From Candidatus Parcubacteria bacterium (lineage in GTDB: Bacteria; Patescibacteriota; Patescibacteriia; Patescibacteriales; BM507), in the NCBI GenBank assembly GCA_002869265.1, contig PKTH01000040.1:5120-69119 (forward strand): DNA of 64,000 nucleotides. The letters are read 5' to 3'. This document shows, one piece after another, positions 1 to 59,165 of this stretch. The position numbers and the translations under genes are program-made. Every line of letters begins with the position of its first letter. Within the stretch, counting starts at the first letter, position 1. A model generated the notes under the pieces. That model searched no databases. It was not told the origin of the DNA and saw only the letters and a program-made list of their open reading frames with translations.

Positions 1-526
1 ATATTTTTTGAAAATTTTTCCAAGTAAAATTCTTTTGCAAAGGCTCTATTCCGTATTTGTTTTTGATAATATCCAACTCGTCCTTAGTAACGATTTTCAT
101 ATAACCAAATTGTCTCATATCGTTAAAATACAAAATCTCCTTTTCACCAAAGTAAAAGATAATATGAGAGAATTTATTTGGCAGACCTTTCTCGAGACCC
201 CCCATTCTATATCTCTTGGACTCTTCTTTCGAGTTAGCATGTCCTCCGGCAACCAAAGAATTATGTCCAACAAAAATAAACTGACCCGTCATTTTCAAAT
301 GGACCAATAAATATTTTTCTTTCTTTCCTTTCCTGAAAGAAAAAATTAAAAGTTTCCCGATCCTGTCTATTTCAAAAAAGGATGCCCCCAAAAGGTCTTT
401 TTTAAAATTAGTATAAGAGCTCTTTACTAACTTGGGCTTCTTAATAACTATTTTGGATATTTTTTTGTTTAAGACTTTTTGTGACAAATCATTTTTGATT
501 GTCTCCACTTCTGGTAATTCTGGCAT
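1..526 (-). CDS. mutM: Formamidopyrimidine-DNA glycosylase (Fpg/MutM), N-terminal ~175 codons; the 3' end lies beyond the window start
   Basis: Reverse translation from the ATG at 524-526 gives MPELPEVETIKNDL..., the canonical Fpg N-terminus. The frame stays open to position 1. It is absent from the supplied ORF track because it has no in-window stop. Confidence 0.85.
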   Translation of the reverse strand, partial: MPELPEVETIKNDLSQKVLNKKISKIVIKKPKLVKSSYTNFKKDLLGASFFEIDRIGKLLIFSFRKGKKEKYLLVHLKMTGQFIFVGHNSLVAGGHANSKEESKRYRMGGLEKGLPNKFSHIIFYFGEKEILYFNDMRQFGYMKIVTKDELDIIKNKYGIEPLQKNFTWKNFQKI

Positions 527-2465: not shown

Positions 2466-5400
2466 CTACCCACCAAGGTTTAGCCAACCAAAAGTATCCT
2501 CAAAAGTCTTAATAATAACTTGTAAAACTGATTCTTCCTTTTGTGGTGTTAGTACAGTATATTTTTTGGAATAAGAAACATTCCCAGCCTCATCAATTGA
2601 TTTAGCTTTTATTGTATAGACAGAGCCCACCCTAAAATCTGTAACAACCAAAACATGTTTGTTAGTTAAACCTCCTTCAGCTTTAACAACCTTAACCTTT
2701 GACCCGCTTGCTTCATTTTCTGAAATATCTTTTTGGACACCTTCGGCATAAATAACTTCACTACTAGATATTTCGTCTGTCTTCCAGGTTATAACAACTT
2801 GAATGCCATCTTCCTGTCCTTTAGAAATAAGTGCCATATCTGTTTTTACATATTCAATTATAGGGGCTTGGGTGTCGACCAGAGTCGTAAAGGAAAAAAG
2901 TTCTGATTCAGTAACCTGACCAAACTCATCTGAGCCCCTAATAAGAAAATCGTACTTCACTCCTGGATTGAGGTTCTTTAAAACTACAGAATGTTGGAGT
3001 GTTAGTTCGGAATTAGCTACCGTGTCCGAAACGCTGGTGTCTGAATTGATATACTCGACTTCAGAGGTCGTCCTCTGAGATGTGGTCCAAGAAATTGTTG
3101 CACTTTTGTCTGTAATATTTTCAATAGAATATCCAAGAACGTCTGGGTTAGACAGAGTTGTGAAAGTGTAGTCATCGGAAGAGATAACATCCCCTGCTCT
3201 TGTATAACCCTTAACTCTAAAATGATATGTAGTACCAGGGCTCAAATCTCCGAGACTGGCATGGTGTCCCAAAGTATAATCACTTATATCAATTACCAGG
3301 TCTTTACCGTAGTTTTGGTCAGCGCCGTATTCAAGCAGAGAGGTGGTTTGCGTGTTTGAATACCAATCTATCTCCACTGAATCTGATTTAATATTTAGAA
3401 TTGAAACTTTCGAAATAAACGGAATAATCTCAGTAGTAAAACTAATTGGATCAGAGGCACCAACATTCCCCAAAACATCAGTTGATTTACCGATAAAAGT
3501 ATAATCAGTTCCGGAGTCTAGTCCTGTTACCCGAACTTGATGATCATTAACCAATTCTTCAAAATTACCTACTTGACGAGCACTCTCAACTCCTTCTTCG
3601 GTTTTAAAATATGAAACAACCGAGTTGGCTCTTCTGTCTGTAGCCCAGAGAATTAAAGCACTTTTACTTGTAATTTCATGAACCTCTGGACCATCTCCAG
3701 TAATCAATGGCGGGGCTGTCATTTTAGCAATCGCTTCTTTTATGTCAGATTCATCAGCTTGACCAGTGGTTAAAAGTTCTGCAGCTAGCTCCTGAATCTT
3801 ACTAAGACTTTCCTCTACTTCTTCTGCCTTCTCGGGAGTAATATCATCTTCGGTGCTACCCTCCTCTCTGGTGGTAAAAGAATAGTCAGGAGAGTTGGCA
3901 ACATTTCCACTATCATCAATTGAAACTGCTGAGAAATGATAGGTCGCTAGGGGAACTAAATTCTTCAGTAGAACTGTGTGCGAGGTTGTGTTTTCTAAGA
4001 TGCTTTCCTTGTTGGTTACCGCTCCGCTATATTCGCTAGAAAGACCATAGAAAAGTGTTGAATTGGCGGGTTCGTCTGTGGTCCAAGTTATAAGGGCATA
4101 AAAATCTCCAAGTTCTGCTACCTTTACATCACTTATCACTGGAGCAACTTTGTCAGTTTTATCGATAATAATCATTCCTCCACCAGAAGTTTCTGACTCA
4201 ACTTCTTCTCTAATTTCCTCAATAGTCTCTTCTCTAATTTCCTCCTTTATCTCGACTTCACTCAAAGGTAGCGCAAATTGATTGGTAGTACTTCCAATAT
4301 TTCCAGAAAGATCTTCCGAGCTCACTCTAAAGAAATATAAATTACCAGGAACTAAACCATCAATATTTACTACATGATAAATTGTGTCTTCTTCGTCCAG
4401 CTCAAGCTCTCCATAACTTATCGTTTCTCCCCACTCCATTTTAGTGTTTGAAAGATCTCCGGTGGTTTTCCAGGTAATTGTTGCCGAACTGGTTGCGGTG
4501 GTGTAAGAAAGTGAAGAAATAACCGGGGCGGTTTCATCCTGCTCGGTAGTAAAGGTGAAAGGATCACCACTAAGAGGATATGTCTCTTCGTTGCCTAATT
4601 GATCTTGGATTCTAATCTTGTATCTATACACTTGGTTCTGAATTAAGTTGTCAATTTCCACGTTATGAGTTGCTCTATATTGTTGAGTAGAAGCTTCCTC
4701 CTTTGGTGATGTATCGATATTGGCAAGGTTGTTTTGTGTTACATATAGTATGGTGGCTATACTCGCCTCATTAGTGGTGAAAGAAATAGTGGCTGAGTCT
4801 ATGGTAGAGCTATCACTTGGGCCCACAGTAATTAGAGGAGGATCTGTATCCCCAGATTCTAAGGTACTAAAGGTGGAAAGCACTGAGTCTGGGCTTAAGA
4901 AAAATATACTACTATCTTGAGCGTCAATCGATTTGATTCTGTAATAATATTGTTGATTTTCTTCAAGCCCCTCTAATTTAAAAATATGATTCCGGGAAGG
5001 AGTTGAGGAGGTGGCGACAAAGGCAGAGGCAATGTCCGTGACCGAACTAGTAGCATAATAGATAACGGAGATATGTGGGGTGTTGGCGGTGAAACTAAGA
5101 GTGGCGGAGTCTGTGGTAACGCCCATAAGGTTGTCACTATCCGGAGTACCTGGGTTTGCAAGAGCTTCATTAGTGATGGTTCTAATGGCTGACGCAAAAC
5201 TAAATGTATTCGAAGAGTAAACAATATCAGCATTGTCGTCAGGATTAACCAATCTAATCATTGCATAATTCAAGCCAGTATCAGAGGCATTCAGTCTCGG
5301 GCTTATGTCTAGCTCATAAGTATGATTCTTCGTCGGGACAGCTATTCCCGGAATAGGGAGATCACAATCTCCAATAACAAAATTATTCGAAGGACCATCA

Positions 5401-8400
5401 ACACTAATACTAGAGTTCGCTTGGCAGAGGGTGGAGTATGTCTCAATATTAGATTTCATGGTAACAATTGCCTTGGTATCCGAAACCAATATGGTATCTA
5501 TATTCTCTTCAATGGTAATCGTGTCATAATTAACAACTTCAGCATCAGTTATAAAATTCATAGCTTCAAAAGAATGTATCCCAGAATCCACCTCGTCAGT
5601 AGCAGCAATAATTACCGAATAAGCAGTATCGATGGTAAGGCTCTCTATAAGGAAATAATGAGTTTGCCCAACTGTCCCCTCCACTCTTGTTCCAAAGGCA
5701 CAGGCTACGTTAAAGTCAGTGATGTCAGCTGTATTCGGGTTAAAAGAATCTATTTCTGTGACAGAGTCAAGCGCATAACAAATAGTGGAGCTGGCATTAG
5801 TAGTTATATAGGTGTCGTTATTTGTGGTGAAGGTCACCAGAGCTGAGTCATCGGTTTTGTGAGGAACTTTCATATTCTCTATTGAGACTAGATCTAGATG
5901 AGGGACAACTGAGGCCTCAGTTGAGAATGATCCAAGGCTAGTATAGAGCTGAGTAGTCCCATTGCCAGCATCAGTTACTCGCGCCATCATGTTATAGTTG
6001 GTACTTGGTGTTAAGCTTGAAATTGTATATGAATGAGTTTTTGACGAATCTGTTTTTGTATATTTTTGGTTTGCCAGACAATCAAGATCAAAACTGGTGC
6101 TAGCAATTTCTGTTGGAGCCTCGGAAATACACAAAGTACTTGTCGCCAGAGCATCAGTTATGAAAGTTATGACAGCCGAGTTAGGACTCGTTAAGCTGTC
6201 CGTAAAATTTGTAATCTGAGTAATCGTTGGGACTACTTGTACCGAAGCCATGGCAAATGAGACCTCATTAGAAGTAATGGGGCTTGCGTTGTTGGCTGAA
6301 CCGGCTGCCCTTGCCCTTAAGTAGTATGTAGTACCTGCTAGCAAGTTATCCTTGATGTGATAGGCGTGAAGTTTGGTAGCACTCCCTGCTCCTATTTCCA
6401 TTCGATAAAAACCCTCGGAAGAGCAATTATTGTCTTCAATCTCGGCTACACTAACTGAGCTGGTTGAATAACAAATATATGAAGTAGCATCTACATCGGT
6501 AGAAAAGGTGACAATCGCGTCTGTATCCGATATGCCCTCTGCTACTGGCAGAGAGAGAGAACCAATTGGATCTGGATCAGCTTCTTGCTGCAACTGCACT
6601 TGCTCTAATTGTGACTTAACTACAATGGTGTTATCAACTTCATCAATCGCCAAAGCCTGAAATGAATAAAGACTACCAACAGTAAGGTTGCTAGCTTTAG
6701 AAACATGAATAATAGAGCCTGTTGGGCTATCCACCTTAGTGGAACCGTTGATACAAGATTTGGTATCAGCGTCAATAAGATCTGAAGCTCCTCCTTCCAG
6801 GTAACAAACAAATGATTTAGCTAGAGCGTCTGTTTTAAAATTTACCATCACCTCCGAACCTGACCATTGCCAAAATTGACTATCAAAATCAATAATATTC
6901 TGAAGAGAGGTGTGCGATACTTGCCTCTCAAGGGTTTTAAAATTTCCTTGATATTCATAACTTGTTTCATTATAAAAATCATCTACCTTAATTTTGTATG
7001 AATAGTTTTTTAAATAATTAAACTTGTTAATTAATTTGTAGTAGTGAGTTTTGGTTATTCCCGCTCCCTCGATTACGTTTGGATTAGCCCCTCCGCTACA
7101 CTCCGTATCCCAGTCAAAATCCTCAAAGCCGTCTACACCTTGGTTATTGTTTTCATGAAAACAGAGAGTGGAGCTGGCAAGTGAAGAAAAGGCTGGTTCA
7201 ATATACACAAGTGCATCCGTGTCGGTTATCATGGCTTCAAGCGCTGAGTGGTCAGTAAAGACAATTGGTTCATAGATTGAAGAATCTGTGGTAAATGATT
7301 GAGGAGAAGAGGTGGCGTTAATCAAATTTTTGTTTTCAAAATCTATCACATAATTATAAGTAGTATTTGGTTCCAAGTCTTCAAGGAGAATCCCTGACTC
7401 AATATTGTAATCAAAGGTTTCTCTAATAAGATCTAGACTTGAGGTGCCGTAGCTAATGCTGCCGTGAGTTAAAACATTTGTACGCCAGGAAATATACGCT
7501 TTGTTGTGAGTAGCGTATTCGACAATGGAACCATCAAGTTCTGGGGCTGTTTGGTCATTAGTGGTAGTAAATTCATAATAATTAGTCGCTCCATTAACAT
7601 CGACATTTTTGTCTTCATCTAAAATAGATCCAGCATCAATCGAGCGAACAAAAAATTTGTAAGTTGAAACCCCGAGACCACTTAGCTCAACTGTGTGGTT
7701 GATATATCCATCACCATCTGTATCTTGACTGACCAAGGTGTCAGAGCCAAAAGTATTAGGATTGACCAGGGCATTATCAGCGTCAATGCCGTCATTAATA
7801 AAATCGCTGTACACAACATAAGAGCTCGCTGGAATATCAGTCTCCCATTCAATGATCGCCCGTCCGTTCAGACCAGAGGCCGTAATTGAACCAGGCACAA
7901 TATTGACTCCGTTGGTAGTCGCAAAGCTAAAACCCCCAGGATGATTTGTGTCTGTTTCTTGGGTTGTATTTCCTCCAGTGTTGTTAGTTGATTTTATCCG
8001 GAAATAATATGTCTCCCCAGGAGTTAACCCTTTAATTGTCACTTCATGATAATCAACCATTGTAGCATTGCCAACTGTGATGGCATTGGTAAAATTATTA
8101 GCTAAATATTCTGCCTCATCCACATAATCAACAGCCGAATCTGACAATTGATCAGCAGGACTAGTCCAGGTAATTGTCGCTTCACCAGAAGTAGGGCTGG
8201 CTGAGACATAAGTCAGACTTGGCCCTTCAGAACTAACTCCACCACCACCTTCACCAGGGTCTTGAGTACCATTAGCGATACCACGGAGAATTGAGGAGTC
8301 ATCGTCACCGCGAACAGAATAATATGAACGGTTGCCCACCTGATCAACTGTGACTATCCGATAGAAATATGTTTCTAAGCCAGTATAGATAACATCATTA

Positions 8401-11400
8401 TCACGATAATAATTAGTCCCTCTCTCATCAAGATGAGACAAAGACAAATCTAGATAATTTTCACTTGGATTTAATTGAGCATAGAGCTGAAAATCATTGT
8501 CTGTTGGGTTGGCTCCGGTAGTAACCGCTTTCTCGATTTCATAATATGCAAAACAGCCAACGCCGATACAGCCGTCACTAACCTCGTCCTCCATAGAACT
8601 TCTCTTCCAGGTGATAAATAAGCCTTCTTCATTGGGGGTGGTAAAAGTATTTGTAATATCTTGAATCATTACCCCTGATGGTCTCTCTGGAGTGCTTACA
8701 TATATATCAGCGGAACTTTCATTTGTTACATTACCAACCTCATCCATAAACTGCACATAGACCGAAGCTTGTTTAGTGGTAGTCTCAGGAGCAATAGACA
8801 TTTTAAAACTAACTCCTGTGGCTGTTTTGGTGTTATTGTCAGCGATCCAAGTAGCACTCGAGCCGTTTAGGCCGTCTGAGACTAAAAGACCAGAACCATC
8901 TAGACTTGAAGTGGCTGAGTAGCGATAGTATATATCAGAGTCATCATTAGCTTTAATGGTCACACAAACCTCATTGGCGTTCATTGCCCCTAGGCTAGCA
9001 CAAAGACTCGTACTAGCAGTGCTGGTTGAACCATCAAACTGTCGACCATCAACCTTAATAACATCATAAGTGCCTACACTGGTTTTATTGTTATTGATAT
9101 TTGGTTTTGTTGTGTCGATTATAAAAGGTGATGAGATAGCTCCGTCAATTTTTGTCACCTGTTTAGCTGTTCTTCCGTCATTGGCAACAACACGGAGAAT
9201 CGCGGTGTCATAATAAACCCCAGTCGAAACATCGTTTTTAAAATCCCAAACAGCTGAAAGTGAATCAGTAGTAGTTGTTCCAATCCCTGGTCCATAGTCT
9301 CCTGATAGGTTGGAGCTCGTAGCCATAATCCAGACAGTTGAATTAATTGAGTGAACAGAGGTCAGAGAATTATTTATCTCCCGAGAACATCCTTCCAACA
9401 GGTATCCCGTTCTACCCGAACAGAGAATTTGTTCTTCATCAATTTGAATATATATATCAGAAGTTTTTAGGGGGTTAGCATTATTGTCGTTAGCATTTGT
9501 ATTAGTCAAAAGAAAAGAGTCTGTTCCATAGCCTAGCTCAGCGCTCAAACGTAAACCAAGGTCTATACCATAATATATGGTCGCTGAGGAATCATCATCA
9601 TCAGACAAACCAAAACCATGAGTCCCTCCTTCATAGCTACCTATCATAAGTTTTCCGAAGTCAGAATCTTCCAGGTCATAATTCTGCCCTACGTCAAGAT
9701 CAGATCCTCCAGAAATTACTGGTCGTTTATTTACCTCATAGGTAATACCAACTTCTGAAACGTCAGCCATGTATCCAAGAGTTGAAACTATTTTTATCTT
9801 GTACTGCATGAAATAATCACCAGATCCGTCAAAAGCGAGACCAGCATTATCAACCGTGCAAAAAACCTTTGTCGCTGCCGGCGGACCGACAACGGTGCTA
9901 GTAGCACAACGAGGATGTACGTCTGTAAAAGGAGCATCAACCCATGGAGCATTCGGCCCCATCCATTCTGTGGCGTTAGCCACATCCGGAACATCGTCTG
10001 TTAGGTCTGTTGGACTAGTGTCCCCTGGCAAAATTGGCGCTGTTCGCACATACATCTCAACACTAGAACCTGGGGGCATTGTCTCTGTTTGGTGCCAATA
10101 GAAAGAATTAAAAACATTACCCTCATCACCAGAGTTATACCAAGAGGAGATAAGAGAGCCCTCCGCTCCTCCCTGTTCAGGGTCGCCAACTCGCTCAAAA
10201 CCAATTTCTACACTATCAACAGAAGGAGTGCTTGTTCTATCGCTAGAAGAAAATATTTTTACTTGATACTGGACTCTTTGCTGTTCATCAATTACACAAT
10301 TATTAGATGAAATATCTTCACCACTTGTAATCGGGTCACAATCAGCCCAGTCAGGCAAGATAAAGCCATTCGGTCCATCAATCGGATTATCACTTCCGTC
10401 GGTGAGATTAAAGGTTCGAACACGAACTTCAACGTTCTCACCGTTAACTAAAGGCGAGATATCATAAGTGGTAGTAGTATATCCAATATTTCCAGCAGCT
10501 AGGAATGGTTTAGATTCGTAAGTAGAGGAAACCGGGAAGCTATGAATAGAAGCCCCAATGTCTATAGCATTCAGGTCTGGTGTCTCAGTGCCATCTGAAG
10601 GAGTATTTAGGGTTGCTTGATACCAGAGGTATTGATCAGTTGAATCACGACAGGTGTCTGTAAGGGTTAATGAGCTGTTTGATGTTTGACTAGAAACAGA
10701 GCAATAAGTACCAGCAGTGAATGTTGGAGCCGAGGCTAAATTATGTGATTTTACTTTAAAACTTAGAGAAGAACTTTGCCCCCCGGTACCATTTGGATAT
10801 AACCCTTCCCAACTAAGACTATTCCAAACATTTTGAAAAGCAATCCCAGCATCCACATAAGAAGTATAAGTAGCTGAATTATAGTCAGGAAATGATTTAT
10901 AATAGATTGTTCCTGCGTCGCTTGAAAATCCTTGGCCCCCAGCAACGGAGACGGCTCCAGAATGTGTATCGCTTGAATACTCAATAGCAATACGACCACC
11001 ACCACCACCAGGTCCGAGATAGTGCCCAGAGGGAGGATTAAAGTTACAAGCCCCGCAATAATCTGCATCACCTCCTTTGGCAGTAATTTGTCCGTTACCT
11101 GAAATATATTTAGCAGTTATCCAGATACTTCCACCAGCCCCAGCACTATACCCGGCTGCAGTTGAGTTAATACCATCTGCGTTTATAGGACCATTTACTG
11201 CTAAAGAATTAATTGCATCCAATCGTATCACCCCACCGCCATTCCCTGCATAATTTGGAGAGGAGATATTCTTGTATATTCCTCCTTGCCCCTCTGTGGT
11301 GGGCTGAATATTAGAGCCAAAAGTAGGTTCAGCAGGTTCATAGACACATCTTTCAGAAAGTGTGGGAGGAGCACCGGCATTTTTCCAACCGCAACCCCCT

Positions 11401-20213: not shown

Positions 20214-20298
20214 TGGTGGGCCGAGCATGATTCGAACATGCGAAGGCGAAGCCAGCAGATTTACAGTCTGCCCTCGTTGACCGCTTGAGTATCGACCC
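20214..20298 (-). tRNA. tRNA-Tyr (anticodon GTA), long variable arm, CCA encoded
   Basis: The reverse complement folds as acceptor gggtcga/tcggccc, anticodon arm gcaga-cuGUAaa-tctgc, variable arm ggc-ttc-gcc, T arm gcatg-ttcgaat-catgc, then ACCA. 85 nt. Confidence 0.9.
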
Positions 20299-26892: not shown

Positions 26893-26967
<75 letters not shown>

Positions 26968-28743: not shown

Positions 28744-29514
28744 TTATTTTTTTAATATTTTATTTGCTACGTGTAAAAATTCATCTGGATTCAAACTTGC
28801 TACACCGACCAAAAGGCCGTCAATATTATCAAGACCATTAAACCCAACTACGTTGTCTTTGTTTATACTCCCTCCATAAATAATTTTGAAATTATTCTCA
28901 ACAACATCTTCACCAAACATATCATTTAAGGTTAAACGAATAATCTTGTGGGCATAATCAGCCTCCGCGGGTTCAATTGCTGTCCCAGAGCCAATTGCCC
29001 AAATAGGTTCATAGGCAACAATTATTTCCTGATTGTCTTTAACCTCGATACCAGTCAAGGCTTGTTGAAGTTGTTCAAATAAAACATAATCTCTTCGGTC
29101 GGTTTTTCTTTCATCCCAGTTCTCTCCAATACAAACAATTGGCACCATATTCTCAACTGCCAACACGGCTTTTAGTTCCTTATGAATCATCTCATAGTTT
29201 TCCATTAAAAATTTCCTTCTCTCCGAATGGCCAATTATCACGTATTTACAACCAGCCTCTTTAAGCATACTAGCAGAAACCTCACCTGAATATGCCCCCA
29301 ACTCCTCCCAGAAAACGTCTTGGGCACCAAGACCAATGGTTGACCCTTGAATAATGTTATTCACCTCACAAATTGAAAGAAAGTTTGGACATATTACAAC
29401 CTCATCCTCACTAAAATTTGTAAACTTTTCTTTTACATCTTGGGCCAATTTCTTGCTTTCCGCCAAAGTAAGTTTCATCTTCCAGTTGGCAATTACAATT
29501 TTATTTTTACTCAT
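28744..29514 (-). CDS. tpiA: Triosephosphate isomerase
   Basis: IANWKMK, IIGHSERR, AYEPIWAIGSG and YGGSI motifs. Confidence 0.92.
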   Translation of the reverse strand: MSKNKIVIANWKMKLTLAESKKLAQDVKEKFTNFSEDEVVICPNFLSICEVNNIIQGSTIGLGAQDVFWEELGAYSGEVSASMLKEAGCKYVIIGHSERRKFLMENYEMIHKELKAVLAVENMVPIVCIGENWDERKTDRRDYVLFEQLQQALTGIEVKDNQEIIVAYEPIWAIGSGTAIEPAEADYAHKIIRLTLNDMFGEDVVENNFKIIYGGSINKDNVVGFNGLDNIDGLLVGVASLNPDEFLHVANKILKK

Positions 29515-33214: not shown

Positions 33215-34150
33215 TTATCTAATTAGTTCTTCTTTCATTAAAGCTGAAATGTCGTCTACCCTTCTCTCAAAGCATTGCTCTCCGGCATCGTGAAGCCATT
33301 CCTGTTTTAAATATGAATATCGATAATCATCATCCGTGTCTTTATTGCTTAAATAAAAATTAGCACAAATCCTATACTTAGTGTCTTCTATAACACTATA
33401 GGCGAAAAATTCATTTGACCCTGGGCTATACAGATTTTTTTCCTGAACCAGCGTATTTGATTCATTAAGCAGCTCTCTCAATTCAGCTGGTATCTGATTG
33501 TTTAATCTATAGTATTCACTAATAGAGTTATCAACATTGCTCAACCTGAGTAAAGTTTCGTTATCTATCTTTCTTAGTCTGGCGTCTTTCGGAGATTCTA
33601 CAAAAATAAACGCAGATACTAATGTCACCAACACTACCAGAGCAGTTACAGATGAATAAATTAAGACTACCCTGTCCTTTTTGCCAAGCACTTCCTTCCG
33701 CTTGAGATCATAAAAATAATAAGAAAAAACTGTTCCAGCAATAGCGACGGCGGTGATGGCCTTAAGTATGAATTTCAATGTAAGTTCACCATCTAGAAAA
33801 TTGAAAATAATTCCCACAAACCAACCGGACATAACAATAAAAGAAATTAACAAAATTAAATAAGATAACCACTTCCTTATCTGAGAGTCTTTTTCTAGTT
33901 CACCAGAATGCAAACTCTTATTAATTAGATGCGAAACATAATAGAAAATCGGTGCGGAAATTATAATCGAAGAAATTGAAAATCGAAGAGACGAAGAGGA
34001 ATAAGTGCCCCGAAGTTCATTAAGAACATCCACCACGTATTTGTTAATAATCTGAAAGATTATTGAACCAGTGGCCATTGCTAAAGAGATAAGAGAAATC
34101 AGAGACAAAAGATAAAAAAACGCAAATTTTGCAGGATTATTATTAGTCAT
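33215..34150 (-). CDS. Multi-pass membrane protein of unknown function (N-terminal 4-TM region, soluble C-terminal domain)
   Basis: Hydrophobic helices across the first ~190 aa; I recognise no catalytic motif. Confidence 0.6.
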   Translation of the reverse strand: MTNNNPAKFAFFYLLSLISLISLAMATGSIIFQIINKYVVDVLNELRGTYSSSSLRFSISSIIISAPIFYYVSHLINKSLHSGELEKDSQIRKWLSYLILLISFIVMSGWFVGIIFNFLDGELTLKFILKAITAVAIAGTVFSYYFYDLKRKEVLGKKDRVVLIYSSVTALVVLVTLVSAFIFVESPKDARLRKIDNETLLRLSNVDNSISEYYRLNNQIPAELRELLNESNTLVQEKNLYSPGSNEFFAYSVIEDTKYRICANFYLSNKDTDDDYRYSYLKQEWLHDAGEQCFERRVDDISALMKEELIR

Positions 34151-38048: not shown

Positions 38049-38837
38049 CTATCTTGTTAATATTTCCGCTCCTTTTTTTGTTACTAAAATAGTATCTTCA
38101 AAGTGGGCACTCAATTCCCCATCCCGTGTGACAAAGGTAAATTCGTCGTCTAAGACATCAATTTCCCAAGAGCCCATATTAACCATTGGCTCAACTGCTA
38201 TTGTCATTCCTTCCCTTAGGGGGATGTCATATTGAGGACCAGCGTAATAATGAGGAATCTGCGGCTCCTCATGGACTGCTCTCCCCACTCCATGACCAAC
38301 CAAATCACGAACTACTGAGAATCCCCTAGCTTCTATATAATCTTCGATACTTTTCCCAATGTCATTTATGGTTGCTCCGGGTTTTATTTTCTTTATTGAG
38401 ATGTCGAGACTTTTCTTTGTAGCTTCTAGTAGTTTTTTTGTGTTGGCGTCAATCTTGCCCGCAGGAAATGTCCTTGCCATATCAGTATACATCCCCCGCC
38501 CATTTTCCAAGAGAGGATATTCCATCCCTACATCAATTGAAACTATGTCCCCCTGCTTTAAAATTCTCCCAGGAAGCGCTGGACCATGAACCACCTCGTT
38601 GTTTATATAAACACAAAGCGCCGTCGGGAAGGGCGTTGAATCTTCTGATATTTTATAATGTTTAAAAGATGGTCTTCCCCCCGCCTCTTCAATTAACTTA
38701 CAAGCCTTTTCTTCTAACTCCTTTGTACTAAGACCTGGTTCTACCATCTTTTCTAGGGACCGCATAACTGAAGAAAGGATCTTCCCACCCTCGCGCATTA
38801 ATTCAATTTCTTCTTTTGTTTTTATATTCTGTATCAT
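38049..38837 (-). CDS. map: Methionine aminopeptidase type I
   Basis: VVHG, DIVSIDVG, HGVGRAVHE and EPMV metal-ligand motifs. Confidence 0.9.
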   Translation of the reverse strand: MIQNIKTKEEIELMREGGKILSSVMRSLEKMVEPGLSTKELEEKACKLIEEAGGRPSFKHYKISEDSTPFPTALCVYINNEVVHGPALPGRILKQGDIVSIDVGMEYPLLENGRGMYTDMARTFPAGKIDANTKKLLEATKKSLDISIKKIKPGATINDIGKSIEDYIEARGFSVVRDLVGHGVGRAVHEEPQIPHYYAGPQYDIPLREGMTIAVEPMVNMGSWEIDVLDDEFTFVTRDGELSAHFEDTILVTKKGAEILTR

Positions 38838-40472: not shown

Positions 40473-41687
40473 TTATTTGTACCTTAGGGCAACCAAAGCA
40501 TTGATTCCCGCTGCTCTTTTTGCTGGATAAAAACCGGTAATTAAACCAACAACAGTTGAAAAAATAGTAACTGTTATTATAAACCAAGCCGGTGTAAAAA
40601 ACAAGTCAATCTTGTCGCCACCATAAGCACCAGCCAAAACATTAATAATATTATTAAATACCTCTCCCCCGAGCATCCCGATCAATATACCCCCGGCTCC
40701 ACCTGTAAAACCAATAATCACCGACTCAGTTAAAAACATCTGCCAGATATCAGCAGAAGTGGCTCCCAAGGCCTTCATAATCCCAATCTCCTGAGTTCTC
40801 TCTAAGAGAGCTATCGTCATGGTGTTAAACATACCAATAGCAGAAACAATCAAAGCAATAACACCAAATAAAGCTAAGACGATTTGAGCTACTTTAAATA
40901 TCTGATTAGCTTGCTCGATAATATCAGAAAGGGCACTTACCAAGAAGTTTTGATCAATTAAATAAGATCTTACTATTTCGAGGCTTTCTTCTTTATCTAC
41001 TTTAACTTTAATTTTTGAAAAATTAACATCACCAATCACCCTACTTAATGAATAAGGTAAATAAGCAAAACTAGAAGCCTCATCATCAGCCACCCCGACT
41101 ATTTCAAATTCTTCTCCAACATCTACCAGCTCTCTTAAGCCACTTTCGTCAACATTCTTATAAACTGAAAAACTAACCTTTTTACCAATGGCCTCCTCTT
41201 CCGGGATATTAAATAATTGCAAAGACGCCTGTGAAACAATAATTTTATCTTTTTCATCCGCTCCGTAGAAATCCCCCAGCTTAAGTGTGGTTCCATCAAG
41301 CCTAAAAAAGTTAGCATCTACGAAATTAGCAGTTATCTCAGATGAAATCTGATCTACCTTCATCCTTGATGACAAAGATACCAGTGGTGATATTATCTCT
41401 ACTTGGCTAACGCCTCTTATTTTATCAACCGATTCTTGGTTAAGACTTATTCCCTCAAGATCCGAAACAGAAACATCTAAACTAAGAAGTGCATCAGAAG
41501 TAGTAATCTGACTCAAAATAACTTGTTGTAAACCATATCCAAGAGACACTAAAAACAAAATAGTCCCAATACCCACAGAGATTCCCAATATTGTAAGTAT
41601 GGTTCTAGAACGATTTGTTCTAAACATTCTAGTGGCTAATCTAAATAAATCAGGAGGTAGCATCTTGTTGTTTGTTATCGAGAGCAC
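40473..41687 (-). CDS. ABC transporter permease, FtsX/MacB-like
   Basis: N-terminal TM, large periplasmic-type loop, and a C-terminal 3-TM FtsX-like bundle (GIMKALGATSADIWQMFLTESVIIG). Confidence 0.8.
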   Translation of the reverse strand: MLSITNNKMLPPDLFRLATRMFRTNRSRTILTILGISVGIGTILFLVSLGYGLQQVILSQITTSDALLSLDVSVSDLEGISLNQESVDKIRGVSQVEIISPLVSLSSRMKVDQISSEITANFVDANFFRLDGTTLKLGDFYGADEKDKIIVSQASLQLFNIPEEEAIGKKVSFSVYKNVDESGLRELVDVGEEFEIVGVADDEASSFAYLPYSLSRVIGDVNFSKIKVKVDKEESLEIVRSYLIDQNFLVSALSDIIEQANQIFKVAQIVLALFGVIALIVSAIGMFNTMTIALLERTQEIGIMKALGATSADIWQMFLTESVIIGFTGGAGGILIGMLGGEVFNNIINVLAGAYGGDKIDLFFTPAWFIITVTIFSTVVGLITGFYPAKRAAGINALVALRYK

Positions 41688-43086
41688 TATACATTTGCTC
41701 TCTTTTTTTATCTAAAAATTTCCTATTTTGTGAAACACCGAAGCCAAGGATAAGAGTCAATTCAACCTCCTCAGAAACTGATCTGGCGGTTTTAGCATTT
41801 AAGCCAACGCCCTCTTCTTTAAATGGCCTGTCAATTATCTCATACATTTCTGGCTTTGATATTTTTTCACTCAAGCGCTCAAAAACAGCCTTTTCTAAAC
41901 GTTTTACTTCTTCCTCGTTTGGTTTTGTTTTGTAGTCTGCAAAACAAACTTCCAATAGATACTTTGTAAGGATAACTGCCTTTTCTTCAACTGGAAATAT
42001 TTCATGTACTCCTTGCTCATTTTTTGATTGTCGCCTCTCTTGATAAACAAATTTAGACATCTGCATAATACCCTCTACTCGACTGGAGATCTTTCTGGCG
42101 GTTCTCACATCAAAACCAACTCCACCCTCTGTATAAGGGCGGTTTAGAATATCTAGAAAATCATCTTGCCCAACAGACTCCATAAGATAGCGCTGCATTA
42201 GGTCTTCAAATATTTTAGTTTCCTCTGCATTTCTATTTGTAATAAAATGGTGGGTAAACATCTTCGCCTTGTATGGCATGATAAGAATATTTATCTGCTC
42301 CGGTGAGAGACCCTGATATGTCCTCATCAAGTTTTGCAGTTCGTTCGTCGGTGCTTTCGTTTTTTCCTCTTCTTTTTTTTCTTCGATGTTTTTGTTTTTA
42401 TTAATCTCTTCTTTAATGATTATCCCGTCTTTTAAATAAAATATTCTATCTCCATATGAAAGATATTCTGGATTATGAGTAACCAAAACAATGGTCTTCT
42501 TCTCTCTTTCATTCAAGTCTTTAAAAATACCTAAAACATTTTTAGCGGAAACAGAATCAAGATTACCAACAGGCTCATCAGCTAAAATAATGTCAGGGTT
42601 GTTGATAATACATCTGGCAATGCCGATTCTTTGTTGTTGACCTCCGGAAAGCTCAGATGGAAGTTTATCGGCCTGTTTTCTAATACCAAATCTTTCAAGA
42701 AGCTCTGCTCCAACCTGATCTCTCTTTCTCTTTCTTCTATTCAAAAAAATCTGTGGTAAAACAACATTGTCCAGCACTGACAAACTTGTTATAAGGTTAT
42801 AGGATTGATAGACCATTCCAACTGTTTTTCTGTGGTATTCAACCTGTTCTCTTTTTGTCATCTCTGAAATATCCTGATCATACACAAAAGCTGTTCCAGG
42901 GGCTGGAACTTCTAAACCGGCAATAACATTCAAGAGAGTGGATTTACCACAACCAGAAGGTCCATAAAGTATCACAAATTCCTCAGGGAATATTTCCAAG
43001 GAAACATTCACAAGGGCTTGATATTCATTGGTTTTTCCTTCGTTGTATGTAAAATTAAGGTTTTTTAACCTAAAAATTGGTTTCAT
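41650..43086 (-). CDS. ABC transporter ATPase (MacB/LolD-like) with a ~250-aa C-terminal extension containing an internal duplication
   Basis: Walker A GPSGCGKST, signature LSGGQQQRIGIAR, Walker B IILADEPVGNLD. The extension has two related modules: RPYTEGGVGFDVRTARKISSRVE and RPFKEEGVGLNAKTARSVSEEVE. Confidence 0.85.
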   Translation of the reverse strand: MKPIFRLKNLNFTYNEGKTNEYQALVNVSLEIFPEEFVILYGPSGCGKSTLLNVIAGLEVPAPGTAFVYDQDISEMTKREQVEYHRKTVGMVYQSYNLITSLSVLDNVVLPQIFLNRRKRKRDQVGAELLERFGIRKQADKLPSELSGGQQQRIGIARCIINNPDIILADEPVGNLDSVSAKNVLGIFKDLNEREKKTIVLVTHNPEYLSYGDRIFYLKDGIIIKEEINKNKNIEEKKEEEKTKAPTNELQNLMRTYQGLSPEQINILIMPYKAKMFTHHFITNRNAEETKIFEDLMQRYLMESVGQDDFLDILNRPYTEGGVGFDVRTARKISSRVEGIMQMSKFVYQERRQSKNEQGVHEIFPVEEKAVILTKYLLEVCFADYKTKPNEEEVKRLEKAVFERLSEKISKPEMYEIIDRPFKEEGVGLNAKTARSVSEEVELTLILGFGVSQNRKFLDKKREQMYSALDNKQQDATS

Positions 43087-43126
43087 ATGCTAAAATTACG
43101 GCAAATATATTATCCTCTTACCTAAG

Positions 43127-43135
43127 ATTATAACA
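43127..43135 (-). promoter_or_regulatory. Candidate extended -10 element (TGTTATAAT) upstream of the ABC operon
   Basis: The minus strand reads catgTTATAATctt about 40 nt upstream of the ATG at 43086. There is no good -35 element. Confidence 0.35.
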
Positions 43136-43147
43136 TGATTTATACAT

Positions 43148-43172
43148 TAAAAAAACCTCCCAATTGGAGGTT
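43148..43172 (-). terminator. Terminator after the 72-aa membrane protein gene (bidirectional-looking)
   Basis: aacctcc/ggaggtt 7-bp hairpin flanked by A-runs and T-runs. Confidence 0.65.
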
Positions 43173-43194
43173 TTAATTTTTAAACTAAATAAAT

Positions 43195-43413
43195 CTAGTC
43201 TTTTTTCAAATCTTTTTTTATTTTGATTATCCCGTATATTACATAAACAACAGACAATACAATCAAGGATAATGACAGCAACATTACTAATATTGAATCA
43301 TTCACATACCCAATTATCCCTATAAATATAAAAACAATAAATACAAATAAATATAGTCTTAAATATGGCCCGAAAAGGCCATCTATAAGTGAACCGAAAA
43401 TATCATCAATCAT
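43195..43413 (-). CDS. Small two-TM membrane protein (72 aa)
   Basis: Two hydrophobic helices (LRLYLFVFIVFIFIGIIGYV and MLLSLSLIVLSVVYVIYGII). Confidence 0.5.
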   Translation of the reverse strand: MIDDIFGSLIDGLFGPYLRLYLFVFIVFIFIGIIGYVNDSILVMLLSLSLIVLSVVYVIYGIIKIKKDLKKD

Positions 43414-43445
43414 TTTTCATTTATAACAATTTATATGGTAATTAT

Positions 43446-43478
43446 AACAAAAAAAGAGTATTCACAAAAGAATACTCT
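43446..43478 (-). terminator. Terminator after secY
   Basis: agagtattc/gaatactct 9-bp hairpin followed by a U-run on the minus strand. Confidence 0.75.
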
Positions 43479-43499
43479 TTTTATATATAAAAAAATGTT

Positions 43500-44774
43500 T
43501 TATAGTCCTTCGTATTCTCTCATCGTCAATTGTGACTCTATCTGTTTAACTGTTTCAATAACTACCGCTACCACAATCAGAAGACTGGTTCCTCCGATAG
43601 TAAGACCAGAAGCAACTCCTGGTAGAGCTTGTAAGATAAGAGGTAGAACCGCAATAGTTCCCAAGAAAAGAGCACCAACAAAGATGATTTTATGAGTGGT
43701 TTGTGCTAAGTATTCAGCAGTATTTTTACCCGGTCTAATTCCTGGAATAAATCCACCCTGTTTTTGAAGATTCTCTGCAATCCTGTCTGGATGAAAAATA
43801 ACTTAAGTGTAAAAATATGTAAAGGCGAATACTAACAAGAAATACAAGACACCATAAACAGTTTGGTTGGCAAAAACATCAATAATCCAAGCTGAAAAAT
43901 TTGCTATCCACTCTGTTTTAGCGTTCTCAAAAAATTGAGCAACCATTGTTGGAAACAACACAACCGAAATAGCGAAGATGATTGGGATAACACCAGCCAT
44001 ATTAACTCTCAAAGGAAGGTGTGTAGTTGTGCCACCAAATGATCGATTACCCCTAACTTGTTTGGCATACTGAACAGGTATATTTCTTTGCCCCTCCGTG
44101 ATCCAAACAACTCCCAAAACAGTTAAGATAGCAACAATTGAAAAGCCAATAATAGTTGTCAGTTGAGAGGGGTCGAAATTAACAACGATTTGTTGTAAGG
44201 TCTGCGGAAGGCTTGAAACGATACCAGCAAATATCAAAAGTGAAATACCGTTACCAATATTCTTCTCTGTAATAAGCTCACCAATCCACATCAAGAAAAC
44301 TGTTCCGGCTGTTATGGTTACCACCATAGCGAATATATCAAAAGAGGTAACATCAGTAAGGATGCCGGCGCTTGATCTTTTCAATAAGATTACCATTGAG
44401 AAGGCTTGCAGTGCTGCAAGCGGGACTGTGGCCCATCTGGTCCACATATTTATCTTTTGTCTTCCTGACTCTTCTTTTTGCATTTCCTCTAACTGCGGAA
44501 CAATCATGGCTAAAAGTTGAAATATAATTGATGATGTAATATATGGAGCAATTCCCATCATAACAACGGAAAAGTTAGCCATACTTCCACCAGAAAAAAC
44601 ATTCAAAAGACCTAAGACCTGATTACCTCCAAAAAACTCCTTCAAAGCAGTAACGTCAACTCCAGGAATAGGAATATGAGCCGCGAATCTGAAAATAACA
44701 AGCATTGATAAAACAAATAAAATATTATTTCTCAAATCTTTTACTTTCCAAATTTGGGCAATTTTATTTATCAT
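43500..44774 (-). pseudogene. secY: Preprotein translocase SecY, full length (424 codons) but with one in-frame TAA at codon 324 (43803-43805)
   Basis: The track ORF 43803-44774 ends ...[10 protein letters not shown]. The same frame continues directly with [32 protein letters not shown]...GGTSLLIVVAVVIETVKQIESQLTMREYEGL* (stop at 43500-43502). That continuation is the conserved SecY C-terminus. Confidence 0.85.
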
Positions 44775-44786
44775 GGGTTTAAAATA

Positions 44787-45254
44787 TTATTTTTTTGAGC
44801 TCTTTTCTTCTAGAGGAAGAACCTTTCCTCCTGCTTTCTCTATTTTAGCACGAGCAGTGTCACTTAGGCTAATATTTTGAAACTGAAGTTTCTTCACCTT
44901 TAGATCACCAATGGCCAAAATTTTAATTTTCCCTTTTTGATCACTTACTAAACCAACCTTACAAAGTGACTTAGCATTCACTAACTGACCTTCACTAAAG
45001 TATTTATTTAGATCGGTTACATTTACTACTTGTGCTTTTGGTTTAAGTGATTTAAATCCTCTAACCTTTGGAGTCCTTAGAAGAGTCTGCTTCATACCAA
45101 GTCTCTTAAGACCAGACACACCTGATCTTGCTTTCTGTCCCTTCATTCCTTTCCCACTATAGTTTCCATCACCTGAAGAATTACCCCTACCAAGTCTTTT
45201 TCTTTTTTTAGTGGCTCCAGTATCGCTTTTAATTGTATTCAATGATAACGCCAT
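44787..45254 (-). CDS. rplO: Ribosomal protein L15
   Basis: KRLGRGNSSG...GKGMKGQKARSG motif and operon position. Confidence 0.92.
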   Translation of the reverse strand: MALSLNTIKSDTGATKKRKRLGRGNSSGDGNYSGKGMKGQKARSGVSGLKRLGMKQTLLRTPKVRGFKSLKPKAQVVNVTDLNKYFSEGQLVNAKSLCKVGLVSDQKGKIKILAIGDLKVKKLQFQNISLSDTARAKIEKAGGKVLPLEEKSSKK

Positions 45255-45285
45255 AATATTTTTATATAATATAGTATAAGTTAAA

Positions 45286-46080
45286 TTATTTTTTCTCGCT
45301 AGCCTTCTTCGAAGCAGTCTTTTTTGCGGTTGGCTTCTTTGGGGCAGGCTTCTTTTCAGTCTTTTTTACTTCTTTCTTGGCTAAAGGTTTTTTAGCGGCC
45401 ACTTTTGGAGCCTCTTTATAATCCGCCTTCTTTTTTTCTTTCACTTCAACTTTTTTCATGCCAGCCAAAGCTTCAATTGTACATTTAGCAATACTGACCT
45501 TATTATTTGTTCCAAGAATTTTACTAGTAATATTGTTAACTCCTGCGAGCTCCAGAATAATACGCACAGCACCACCAGCAATCACACCCTTACCTTTTCT
45601 AGCTGGTTTAAATAAAATTTTAGCAGCACCTGTTTTTTGATAAACTTCGTGTGGAATAGTTTCATTTACAATTGAAACATCTACCAATTCTTTTTTAGCT
45701 TGGGCAACTGCTTTGGTAACAGCGATTGTAACGTCTGCTCCCTTAGCAAGACCAACACCAACCTTACCCTTTTTGTTACCAATAGCCACACATGCTCTAA
45801 ATCTCATTCTTTTTCCACCGGCCATAACACGAGTAACCCTGGCTAGGTCTACTATTTTTTGTTCAAATTCGTCTTGCGGTTTATCTCTTTCGAAATTCTT
45901 TCTTCTTTTTTTAGCGAATTTTTTTTCACCGTAAACTGACTTCCCTACTGCATCCTTGGCTACAACAGCCTTCTCACCAGCTTTAGCTACCGCCGCATCT
46001 TTTTTAACTGCGACATCTGCTTTTGGCTTTTCAACCAAAGCTTTATCCTTTGTTTCGGCTACTTTTTTTTCTTCTGCCAT
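45286..46080 (-). CDS. rpsE: Ribosomal protein S5 with long K/A-rich N- and C-terminal extensions
   Basis: Core RVTRVMAGGKRMRFRACVAIGNKKGKVGVGLAKG; 264 aa. Confidence 0.92.
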   Translation of the reverse strand: MAEEKKVAETKDKALVEKPKADVAVKKDAAVAKAGEKAVVAKDAVGKSVYGEKKFAKKRRKNFERDKPQDEFEQKIVDLARVTRVMAGGKRMRFRACVAIGNKKGKVGVGLAKGADVTIAVTKAVAQAKKELVDVSIVNETIPHEVYQKTGAAKILFKPARKGKGVIAGGAVRIILELAGVNNITSKILGTNNKVSIAKCTIEALAGMKKVEVKEKKKADYKEAPKVAAKKPLAKKEVKKTEKKPAPKKPTAKKTASKKASEKK

Positions 46081-50772: not shown

Positions 50773-51363
50773 TTATCCACTTTTTCTTCTGAATACTTTT
50801 CCAGCAAACCCCTTAGATGAGCCACCTTCAATTTTAGCATTTTTACCATGTCCTTCTCCTCTTGGATCAACTATTTTTTCTGCTGCAAGGTCTTCAGTTT
50901 TCTTAGTTGGGCTTTCTTCTTTCTTCTTAGCTGCTGTTGGCTTCTTTTCTTCTTTTGCTTCCTTCGGTTGCTCTCCTAGTTTAATAGGTGCTTCAATCTT
51001 TTGTTTTTTAGCTTCTTTTTTACCACTATCTTTAAGTTCTCCAAGAACCAGGCTAATATGACTTGTTCTTTTTCTAATCGGAGTAGCTCTTCCGTGAGCT
51101 CTAGGCATCCATCTTTTTAGTGTTGCTCCTTCGTTAACAGTGATTTCTTTTACAAAAAGATTATCTTTTGAAAGCTCATAGGTGTTTTCAGCATTTGCGA
51201 TTGCAGAATTTATTAATTTAATAACAGGTTTAGTTACTCTCTTATTAACAAATTGCAATTGGTCAAGCGCTTTTTCAACCTGCATTCCACGAACAATGTC
51301 TACAACCAATCTGGCCTTTCTTGCTGAGGTTCTCAAGTTTTTAACGTTTGCTTTTATTTCCAT
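50773..51363 (-). CDS. rplV: Ribosomal protein L22 with ~85-aa K/E-rich C-terminal extension
   Basis: NLRTSARKARLVVDIVRG...; extension KKEAKKQKIEAP... Confidence 0.92.
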   Translation of the reverse strand: MEIKANVKNLRTSARKARLVVDIVRGMQVEKALDQLQFVNKRVTKPVIKLINSAIANAENTYELSKDNLFVKEITVNEGATLKRWMPRAHGRATPIRKRTSHISLVLGELKDSGKKEAKKQKIEAPIKLGEQPKEAKEEKKPTAAKKKEESPTKKTEDLAAEKIVDPRGEGHGKNAKIEGGSSKGFAGKVFRRKSG

Positions 51364-57083: not shown

Positions 57084-59165
57084 TTATTTCTTTTCGTTTT
57101 CTCCCATAATTTTCTCAGCAATGTTTTTTGGCACTTCTGAGTAGTTAAGGAATTCCATTGAGTAGTTAGCTCTACCTTGACTCATAGATCTTAGCTCTGT
57201 AGCATAACCAAACATTTCTGATAATGTAACTTTAGCGTCAATAACTTTTAACTTACCTCTGTCTGACATTTGGTCAATTTGACCTCTTCTTGAGTTAAGA
57301 TCACCAACGACTGCTCCCATATAATCTTCCGGAGTAGTTACTTCAACTTTCATAATCGGCTCAAGGATAACAGCACCTGCATTTCGACAAGCGTCCTTGA
57401 AGGCAAAAATTGATGCCATTTTAAATGCTGCCTCAGAAGAATCAACCTCATGATAAGAACCATCATAAACAGTTGTTTTAACATCAACCATTGGATAACC
57501 AGCTAGAACACCTTGGTCCATAGCCTCTTTAACACCTTTTTCAATTGCTGGAATATATTCTCTAGGAACAACACCACCCTTAATCTCATTAGCAAACTCA
57601 AACCCAGCACCCTCTTCTTGTGGCTCAACTCTTAGATATACATGACCGTATTGACCACGACCACCAGACTGTTTAGCATATTTGTGCTCTTGCTCAGCCA
57701 TTGTTCTAATAGTTTCTCTATATGATACTTGTGGTTGACCGATATTTGCTTCAACCTTAAACTCTCTTTTCATACGATCAACAATAATGTCTAAGTGAAG
57801 CTCACCCATTCCTGAAATCAAAGTTTGATTTGTCTCCTCATCAGTCTCCACTCTAAAGGTTGGATCTTCTTCTGCTAGCTTTTGTAGAGCCATGCCCATT
57901 TTTTCTTGATCAGCTTTAGTCTTAGGTTCAACAGCGATTTTAATAACTGGTTCAGGGAAAGTGATTGATTCTAAAATAAGTTTTCTATCCTCGCTAGTTA
58001 AAGTATTCCCTGTTACAGTATCTTTCAGTCCGATAACCGCTGCAATATCTCCTGCATAAACTGATTTAACTTCCTCTCTATGATTAGCGTGCATTCTTAC
58101 TAGTCTTCCAATTCTTTCTTTTGATCCAGTAGAGGTATTGTAAACATAAGAACCTGATTCCAAAACACCAGAATAAACCCTAACAAAAGTCAGTCTACCA
58201 ACAAAAGGGTCAGTAGCTACTTTAAAAGCTAGAGCTGAGAAAGGCTCATCATCACTTGGTTTAACAGGGATTTTTACTTCTTCGTCATCTGGATTCATTG
58301 CTTGAATTTCTGGCACATCTAGCGGAGATGGTAAGTAAGTAACAACGCCGTCTAGAGCTAGTTGTACACCTACATTCTGTAGAGCAGAACCAGCATATAC
58401 TGGATATAGCTCATTTGCGATAACACCTTTTCTAATAGCAGCGTTTAATTCATCTTCAGAAATTTCTTCTCCTCCTAAATACTTCTCTGTCAAAGCATCA
58501 TCAACCTCTACTACTCTTTCAATTAACTCTGCTCTATATTCTTCAACCATTGCCTTCATGTCTTCTGGAATTTCTACCTCATTCATCTTTTCACCAAAAT
58601 TTCCTTCAAACTCGTAAGCTTTTTGTTTAAGTAGATCAACTACTCCCCTGTGCTCATTTTCAGCACCAATCGGCAGTTGGATAGCTACAGCCTTTGAACT
58701 TAGTCTATCTCTAATAGAATCAAGACTCATCTTAAAGTCAGCTCCCATTTTGTCCATTTTGTTTACAAAACAAAGCCTTGGCACTTTATATTTATCCGCT
58801 TGTCTCCAAACAGTCTCTGATTGAGGCTCAACACCAGCTGCCCCATCAAATACAGCAATAGCACCATCAAGAACACGAAGTGATCTTTCAACTTCCACAG
58901 TAAAATCAACGTGACCAGGAGTATCAATAATATTTATTCTATTATCTTGCCAAAAACAAGTAGTAGCCGCTGAGGTAATTGTGATTCCTCTTTCTTTTTC
59001 TTGTTCCATCCAGTCCATATCAGATTCACCTTCATGAGTTTCACCAATTTTGTGCTTTTTACCAGTGTAAAATAAAACACGTTCAGTAAACGTAGTTTTT
59101 CCAGCATCAATGTGGGCCATGATGCCGATATTTCTTGTTTTTTCTAATGAATATTCTCGAGCCAT
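57084..59165 (-). CDS. fusA: Elongation factor G
   Basis: [25 protein letters not shown]; five-domain length (693 aa). Confidence 0.97.

Follow-up and report, generated by a model that had tools for sequence, protein, structure and literature searches.

The secY gene is essential, and the copy found in the window, the whole 64,000-nucleotide stretch of a Candidatus Parcubacteria MAG analyzed here, is interrupted by an in-frame TAA codon. The locus raises the question of whether the organism reads through this stop, splits its SecY or has lost it, or whether the stop belongs to the deposited sequence. The original prediction had listed four options uncommitted: an error in the consensus or the assembly, grouped with a minority nonsense allele; site-specific readthrough or suppression; a functional two-piece SecY; and a very recent pseudogene. 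The present comparison favors the first of these, since the codon reads GAA in the same-strain assemblies and the MAG carries its own excess of G:C>T:A changes, and lends no support to the second and third. The TAA is a trait of one record, not of lineage biology, and we assign a probability of about 0.65 to its being a consensus error in this deposited MAG, possibly of the oxidative-damage type, as judged from sequence comparison.

The secY reading frame and its annotation

The gene lies on the minus strand (window 44774..43500) and its translation shows one interruption, the TAA at codon 324 (Table 1). SecY is usually encoded by a single uninterrupted ORF of about 420-440 aa, a continuity that the TAA breaks in the window copy. 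Past the TAA, 100 in-frame SecY codons lead to a normal TAA stop at 43500-43502 (translation carried to 43497), which is followed by a terminator-like hairpin and T-run. The Pfam SecY profile PF00344 (cut-off 32.2 bits) reports hits with the N-terminal piece over profile positions 1-225 (243.8 bits, E 3.5e-72) and with the C-terminal piece over positions 228-306 (92.7 bits, E 3.6e-26). As the two pieces match the profile end to end, secY is complete apart from the stop, with no part missing or shifted; its matches to SecY proteins in the PDB reach E values down to 1e-105. Alignment to the Geobacillus SecY structures 5eul and 6itc places the stop within the FTYFYT-x-V motif, before the GIRPG loop, TM9, and TM10, a site that we take from SecY topology to be the cytoplasmic end of TM8, just ahead of the C5 loop. 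If the stop is real, the N-terminal piece of 323 residues is the sole product expected. The signs of a decaying pseudogene, namely several lesions and relaxed constraint, are absent from this gene, which has a single lesion and no frameshift, and no second secY occurs within the window. The gene order L3...S5-L15-SecY, in which secY closes the spc cluster directly behind rplO, is canonical in both the window and the ENA contig. The original description therefore stands as regards the in-frame stop between two conserved halves, the 100 further codons to a normal stop and terminator, and the lack of a frameshift, of downstream decay, and of a second copy in the window.

Table 1. Coordinates of the secY features and of three missense sites specific to the MAG (positions in the window)
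Feature	Position	Strand	Evidence or remark
Full secY frame (intact allele: 424 sense positions)	43500..44774	-	Translation, same-strain protein comparison, Pfam PF00344
In-frame TAA, codon 324; plus strand reads TTA	43803..43805	-	Base-by-base comparison with the ENA contig
N-terminal ORF, 323 aa, TM1-TM8 by homology	43803..44774	-	Translation, homology
C-terminal 100 codons: C5 loop with GIRPG motif, TM9, TM10	43503..43802	-	Translation, PF00344, alignment to SecY structures 5eul/6itc
Terminator-like hairpin and T-run, 3' of secY	43451..43482	-	
tpiA G238V, GGASL -> GVASL	28802 (gene 28744-29514)	-	MAG-specific coding-strand G>T; ENA/JGI/Logan read GGA
map S77Y, conserved Ser of C-x-S-I/V-N-E-V-V-x-H-G motif	38608 (gene 38049-38837)	-	MAG-specific coding-strand C>A
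fusA P647T, VPLSEMFGY -> VTLSEMFGY	57227 (gene 57084-59165)	-	MAG-specific coding-strand C>A; Logan contig: Pro

Exact-sequence look-up identifies L15, S5, and EF-G as PLX20603.1, PLX20604.1, and PLX20623.1 of the NCBI MAG 'Candidatus Parcubacteria bacterium' (locus-tag prefix C0584_; the contig measures 134,420 bp). Downstream of secY comes a 72-aa gene, PLX20602.1 (C0584_05160), and C0584_05275 denotes the hypothetical gene that separates fusA from tuf; the gene count from one to the other assigns C0584_05165, which has no protein, to secY. Given this empty locus tag, and with neither a 323-aa fragment nor a member of the intact cluster from NCBI, secY was evidently annotated as a pseudogene. 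PGAP gives a CDS with an internal stop a locus tag but no protein, and the window secY was treated no differently from the routine 'internal stop' pseudogene calls in MAGs. The exact 323-aa fragment is absent from a collection of 15 billion proteins, in which the 54-aa TTG-initiated C-terminal ORF likewise has no exact match; both being off record, the truncation is common to no other assembly. The methionine aminopeptidase (MetAP), the accession of which is missing from the serial run, was considered as a second annotated pseudogene and ruled out, as it is present as PLX20691.1 (261 aa), an accession out of serial order. Its NCBI start is an ATT (38835-38837), despite an ATG one codon upstream.

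Gene neighborhood

No L30 gene lies between those of S5 and L15 (window 44774-45286), an absence that fits CPR bacteria. The S5 protein encoded by rpsE (45286-46080) comprises 264 residues; its Pfam domains are confined to residues 72-214, and each end bears a Lys/Ala-rich tail. Similarly, L22, encoded by rplV (50773-51363), comprises 196 residues, its domain covering residues 6-107 and being followed by an unmatched C-terminal extension of about 90 residues. Downstream, secY is not followed by adk, infA, or rpmJ (43086-43500); their place is taken by the gene of a 72-aa membrane protein and by a MacB-like ABC pair, and map lies five genes further along. A 478-aa ABC ATPase (41650-43086, minus strand) matches ABC_tran only over residues 26-173, leaving a C-terminal part of ~250 residues without any Pfam match, and its gene overlaps the start of the next one, which encodes an FtsX/MacB-type permease. 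Between fusA and tuf, the 131-residue hypothetical protein PLX20622.1 (56647-57042, minus strand) has only a weak, sub-threshold Phd/YefM antitoxin-like N-terminus (E 3e-4). Lastly, a giant ORF of 3321 residues (2466-12431, minus strand), present in all assemblies of the strain, comprises repeated fn3/Pur_ac_phosph_N-like domains.

Codon 324 in the same strain and among relatives

A protein search in which the stop was replaced returns an intact SecY of 424 residues with Glu at position 324 and every other residue identical to the window. This protein is encoded in ENA ERZ794998 NODE_87 (134,591 bp, coverage 11), in JGI 3300007102 Ga0102541_1051467 (134,754 bp), and in Logan SRR5894287 contigs, each time at the same genomic place as in the window. 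The three assemblies probably derive from one sample and would therefore represent independent assemblers, not independent samples. The secY DNA was compared base by base with the ENA contig, in which codon 324 is GAA. The changed base is 43805, which on the plus strand is A in the window and C in the ENA contig, and a single coding-strand G>T thus converts GAA (Glu) into TAA. Over the ~63.7 kb aligned, the window differs from the ENA, JGI, and Logan sequences by 20 bases and no indel (99.97% identity), and these three agree with one another at every one of the 20 sites that is covered by more than one assembly. Two of the other MAG-specific differences fall within secY, both synonymous; the nearest is located 244 bases from 43805, the 243 bases in between on that side being identical. 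An exact search with a 38-mer spanning the stop, in which N replaced the variable base, retrieved neither allele from genome_contigs or metagenome_contigs, two collections without this strain. At window position 33445, T is found in the JGI contig alone and G in the other three sequences (window, ENA, and Logan); this is a second case of an assembler- or record-specific single-base disagreement in the strain.

The window SecY is 75-88% identical to many Patescibacteria SecY proteins. Among the closest SecY clusters, all of 422-426 residues, Glu324 is invariant (120 out of 120). In 80 related Patescibacteria species genomes, codon 324 is GAA in 66, GAG in 10, GAT in 2, and GCN in 2, amounting to Glu in 76 of the 80. 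None of these species-representative genomes has an interrupted secY, at codon 324 or elsewhere inside the gene; an apparent internal stop in one relative turned out to be its natural stop, located two residues earlier than in the query. Alignment with the closest relatives, a check proposed in the original prediction, thus returns a sense codon at the site, mostly GAA, and a stop at codon 324 is found in none of the 3 same-strain assemblies, 120 homologous clusters, and 80 species genomes. The same prediction held the site to be variable, which is true beyond the clade, where Geobacillus SecY has Ala in the structure alignment, as presumably does E. coli SecY, but not within it. Compared with the PF00344 SecY of Parcubacteria/Falkowbacteria-like CPR, the window gene has the same sequence, length (424 residues, the stop counted as Glu), and position after rplO, and the sole difference is the TAA at codon 324, in one record only.

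Differences specific to the MAG

The 20 differences comprise 11 G:C>T:A changes (4 synonymous, 5 missense, 1 nonsense, and 1 intergenic), 2 A>C changes (1 missense and 1 intergenic, none synonymous or nonsense), and 7 transitions (6 synonymous and 1 intergenic, none missense or nonsense). The 13 transversions lie at window positions 1291, 8283, 14740, 23923, 25042, 28802, 38608, 41232, 43805, 45419, 57227, 61505, and 61902. The G:C>T:A class represents 12% of the possible changes and is in clear excess at 11 out of 20 (binomial P = 5e-6). All six coding transitions are synonymous (chance probability 0.001), and the transversions, with 7 nonsynonymous changes (6 missense and 1 nonsense) to 4 synonymous ones, differ in this respect from the transitions with 0 to 6 (Fisher P = 0.017 one-sided, 0.035 two-sided). 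Selection seems to have filtered the transitions, as would be the case for genuine strain differences, and the contrast with the transversions suggests two processes, one giving selected real SNPs and the other changes free of selection. For C>A changes placed at random in the affected genes, the computed proportions are 73% missense, 11% synonymous, and 11% nonsense; about 1.1 nonsense changes are therefore expected among 10 coding C>A without selection, and 1 is observed. Synonymous changes make up 4 of these 10 as against 11% expected (P = 0.02), meaning that some of the class are genuine strain differences and that the TAA could be genuine too. Inspection of the flanks of the C>A changes revealed no sequence-context motif.

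TIM G238, EF-G P647, and MetAP S77, three of the residues altered in the MAG (Table 1), belong to housekeeping proteins and are conserved across bacteria, each being shared by the three solved homologues aligned; their replacement is not benign. The tpiA G238V change is probably another error of the same record. The variant proteins, GH57 P143T, TIM G238V, S5 S221Y, EF-G P647T, and MetAP S77Y, are found in the NCBI MAG only and never in the JGI, ENA, or Logan assemblies.

Readthrough, suppression, and split or duplicated SecY

A TAA fixed in a living strain, with SecY made by ochre suppression, by leaky readthrough, or from TM1-8 and ATT-initiated C5-TM9-TM10 fragments, would represent the first case in nature of a split or recoded SecY, and is in our judgment very improbable. 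A full-length SecY could be produced by site-specific readthrough of the TAA or through an ochre-suppressor tRNA encoded elsewhere, and the perfectly continuous frame past the stop accords with this; we nevertheless hold it to be a quite improbable account. The stop is absent from the same-strain assemblies, the 120 clusters, and the 80 genomes, which leaves no substrate for selecting a recoding signal, and the stop conserved at the same site that would be expected of programmed readthrough or recoding is not observed in them. TAA terminates 53 of the 72 ORFs in the window (about 73%; TAG 14, TGA 5). This usage rules out a genome-wide recoding of TAA, already deemed unlikely in the original prediction, and would make an efficient ochre suppressor costly. 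No suppressor tRNA with a UUA anticodon is found in the window, the tRNAs of which are limited to Tyr-GTA and Thr-GGT, and an Rfam scan added nothing. ARAGORN locates the tRNA-Tyr(GTA) (85 nt) at 20214-20298 on the minus strand, and the Rfam scan at gathering threshold reports only the tRNA-Thr at 26896-26967. TAA is recognized by both release factors and, to our knowledge, is not used as a programmed readthrough codon in bacteria. Moreover, the DNA around the stop is that of the intact allele, identical in the surrounding stretch except at 43805, so that nothing in it has become adapted to either readthrough or a split.

A working SecY made of TM1-8 and an independently started C5-TM9-TM10 fragment is a highly improbable alternative. 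In its favor, both pieces are intact in the window, and the eukaryotic homologue Sec61p, when engineered as a split mutant, can assemble from its complementary fragments (Wilkinson et al. 1997 EMBO J 16:4549, as related in PMC8675477), so that, as far as that account goes, such a channel can in principle be built from two polypeptides. In the engineered mutants as described there, however, each fragment has its own promoter and start codon, whereas the C-terminal piece in the window lacks any such signal for starting, and no relative shows the split. The start codon and ribosome-binding site that a split gene would be expected to provide for its C-terminal piece are not found: the frame past the stop reads GTT ATT TTT CAT, with GTT ATT directly after the stop as originally reported, and an ATG, GTG, or TTG in this frame appears 46 codons downstream at the earliest, as the TTG at 43664 that falls within TM9. 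Before this position only ATT codons are available, and no Shine-Dalgarno-like motif ahead of them was seen by eye. Neither conservation of the split (0 relatives) nor any accompanying adaptation is observed, the sequence being otherwise that of the unsplit allele. Hardly any credence can be given to the idea that another, intact secY elsewhere in the genome has made this copy a dispensable, ordinary pseudogene, as the gene shows zero decay, has only synonymous changes as its two other differences, occupies the canonical place after rplO, and is intact at the same place in the sister assemblies. Even taken jointly, readthrough or suppression, a two-piece SecY, and a second secY remain distinctly unlikely.

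Consensus error or real non-functional allele

The TAA may also be real and leave the allele without function, as a nonsense mutation of very recent origin, deleterious or lethal, that gives a nascent pseudogene; we consider this reading unlikely while taking it seriously. Such an allele could stem from a G:C>T:A mutator sub-population, from a minority genotype picked by the assembler, or from the DNA of dead cells. That the MAG represents a truly distinct strain is suggested by the 10 synonymous and 3 intergenic differences among the 20, and the undecayed 100 downstream codons, together with the two other, synonymous, secY differences, are as expected for a change only generations old. An in vivo 8-oxoG mutator would also match the spectrum; a sub-lineage that really is a mutator, owing to defective 8-oxoG repair, would yield an identical one, which counts against reading the changes as errors. 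However, secY is essential and without a second copy in the window, and a consensus should represent the majority genotype, which cannot be SecY-null. TIM, EF-G, and MetAP are altered in this record too, probably to crippling effect, and such a density genome-wide would mean very many lesions, an unsustainable load; together with the secY nonsense codon within 64 kb, these lesions are not expected in a viable lineage. Finally, a homologue of the 8-oxoG glycosylase Fpg/MutM is encoded on the minus strand at window 1-526, running off the window start, and its in-window part has no MAG-specific change. The strain is thus not lacking this repair gene, which weakly disfavors an in vivo 8-oxoG mutator.

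A consensus error in the deposited MAG is therefore the preferred reading. From the stop present in this record, its absence from other assemblies and relatives, and the skewed spectrum, we infer a technical rather than a biological cause. A lone G>T substitution confined to this NCBI MAG (C0584_) would have turned Glu324 from GAA into TAA, as a member of a group of G:C>T:A miscalls bearing the signature of oxidized guanine or of low-quality base calls, and these miscalls would overlie a small number of genuine silent differences of a very close strain variant. 8-oxoguanine that forms while DNA is sheared and libraries are prepared is known to yield G>T/C>A artefacts (Costello et al. 2013, PMC3616734). 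The same substitution class is dominant here and seemingly unfiltered by selection: the G>T/C>A changes are in excess, are absent from the other same-strain assemblies, and show a nonsense count close to that expected without selection. One difference is that the artefacts of that study are low-allele-fraction calls in deep data, whereas entry into a consensus, as here, would need low coverage or poor error correction.

Significance

The organism probably makes an ordinary one-piece SecY of 424 residues, encoded by an ordinary gene that closes the S10-spc ribosomal protein cluster. Were the stop real and fixed, an essential channel would have to be expressed across an internal stop codon, which would be remarkable; no finding here favors this. 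The value of the observation lies mainly in quality control, as a flag on one public Parcubacteria MAG in which a cluster of G:C>T:A changes has produced a false (or dead-end) secY pseudogene and altered residues that are invariant in TIM, EF-G, and MetAP. If read literally, records of this kind would inflate the number of 'lost essential genes' in CPR bacteria and may give rise to spurious claims of recoding or of split translocons.
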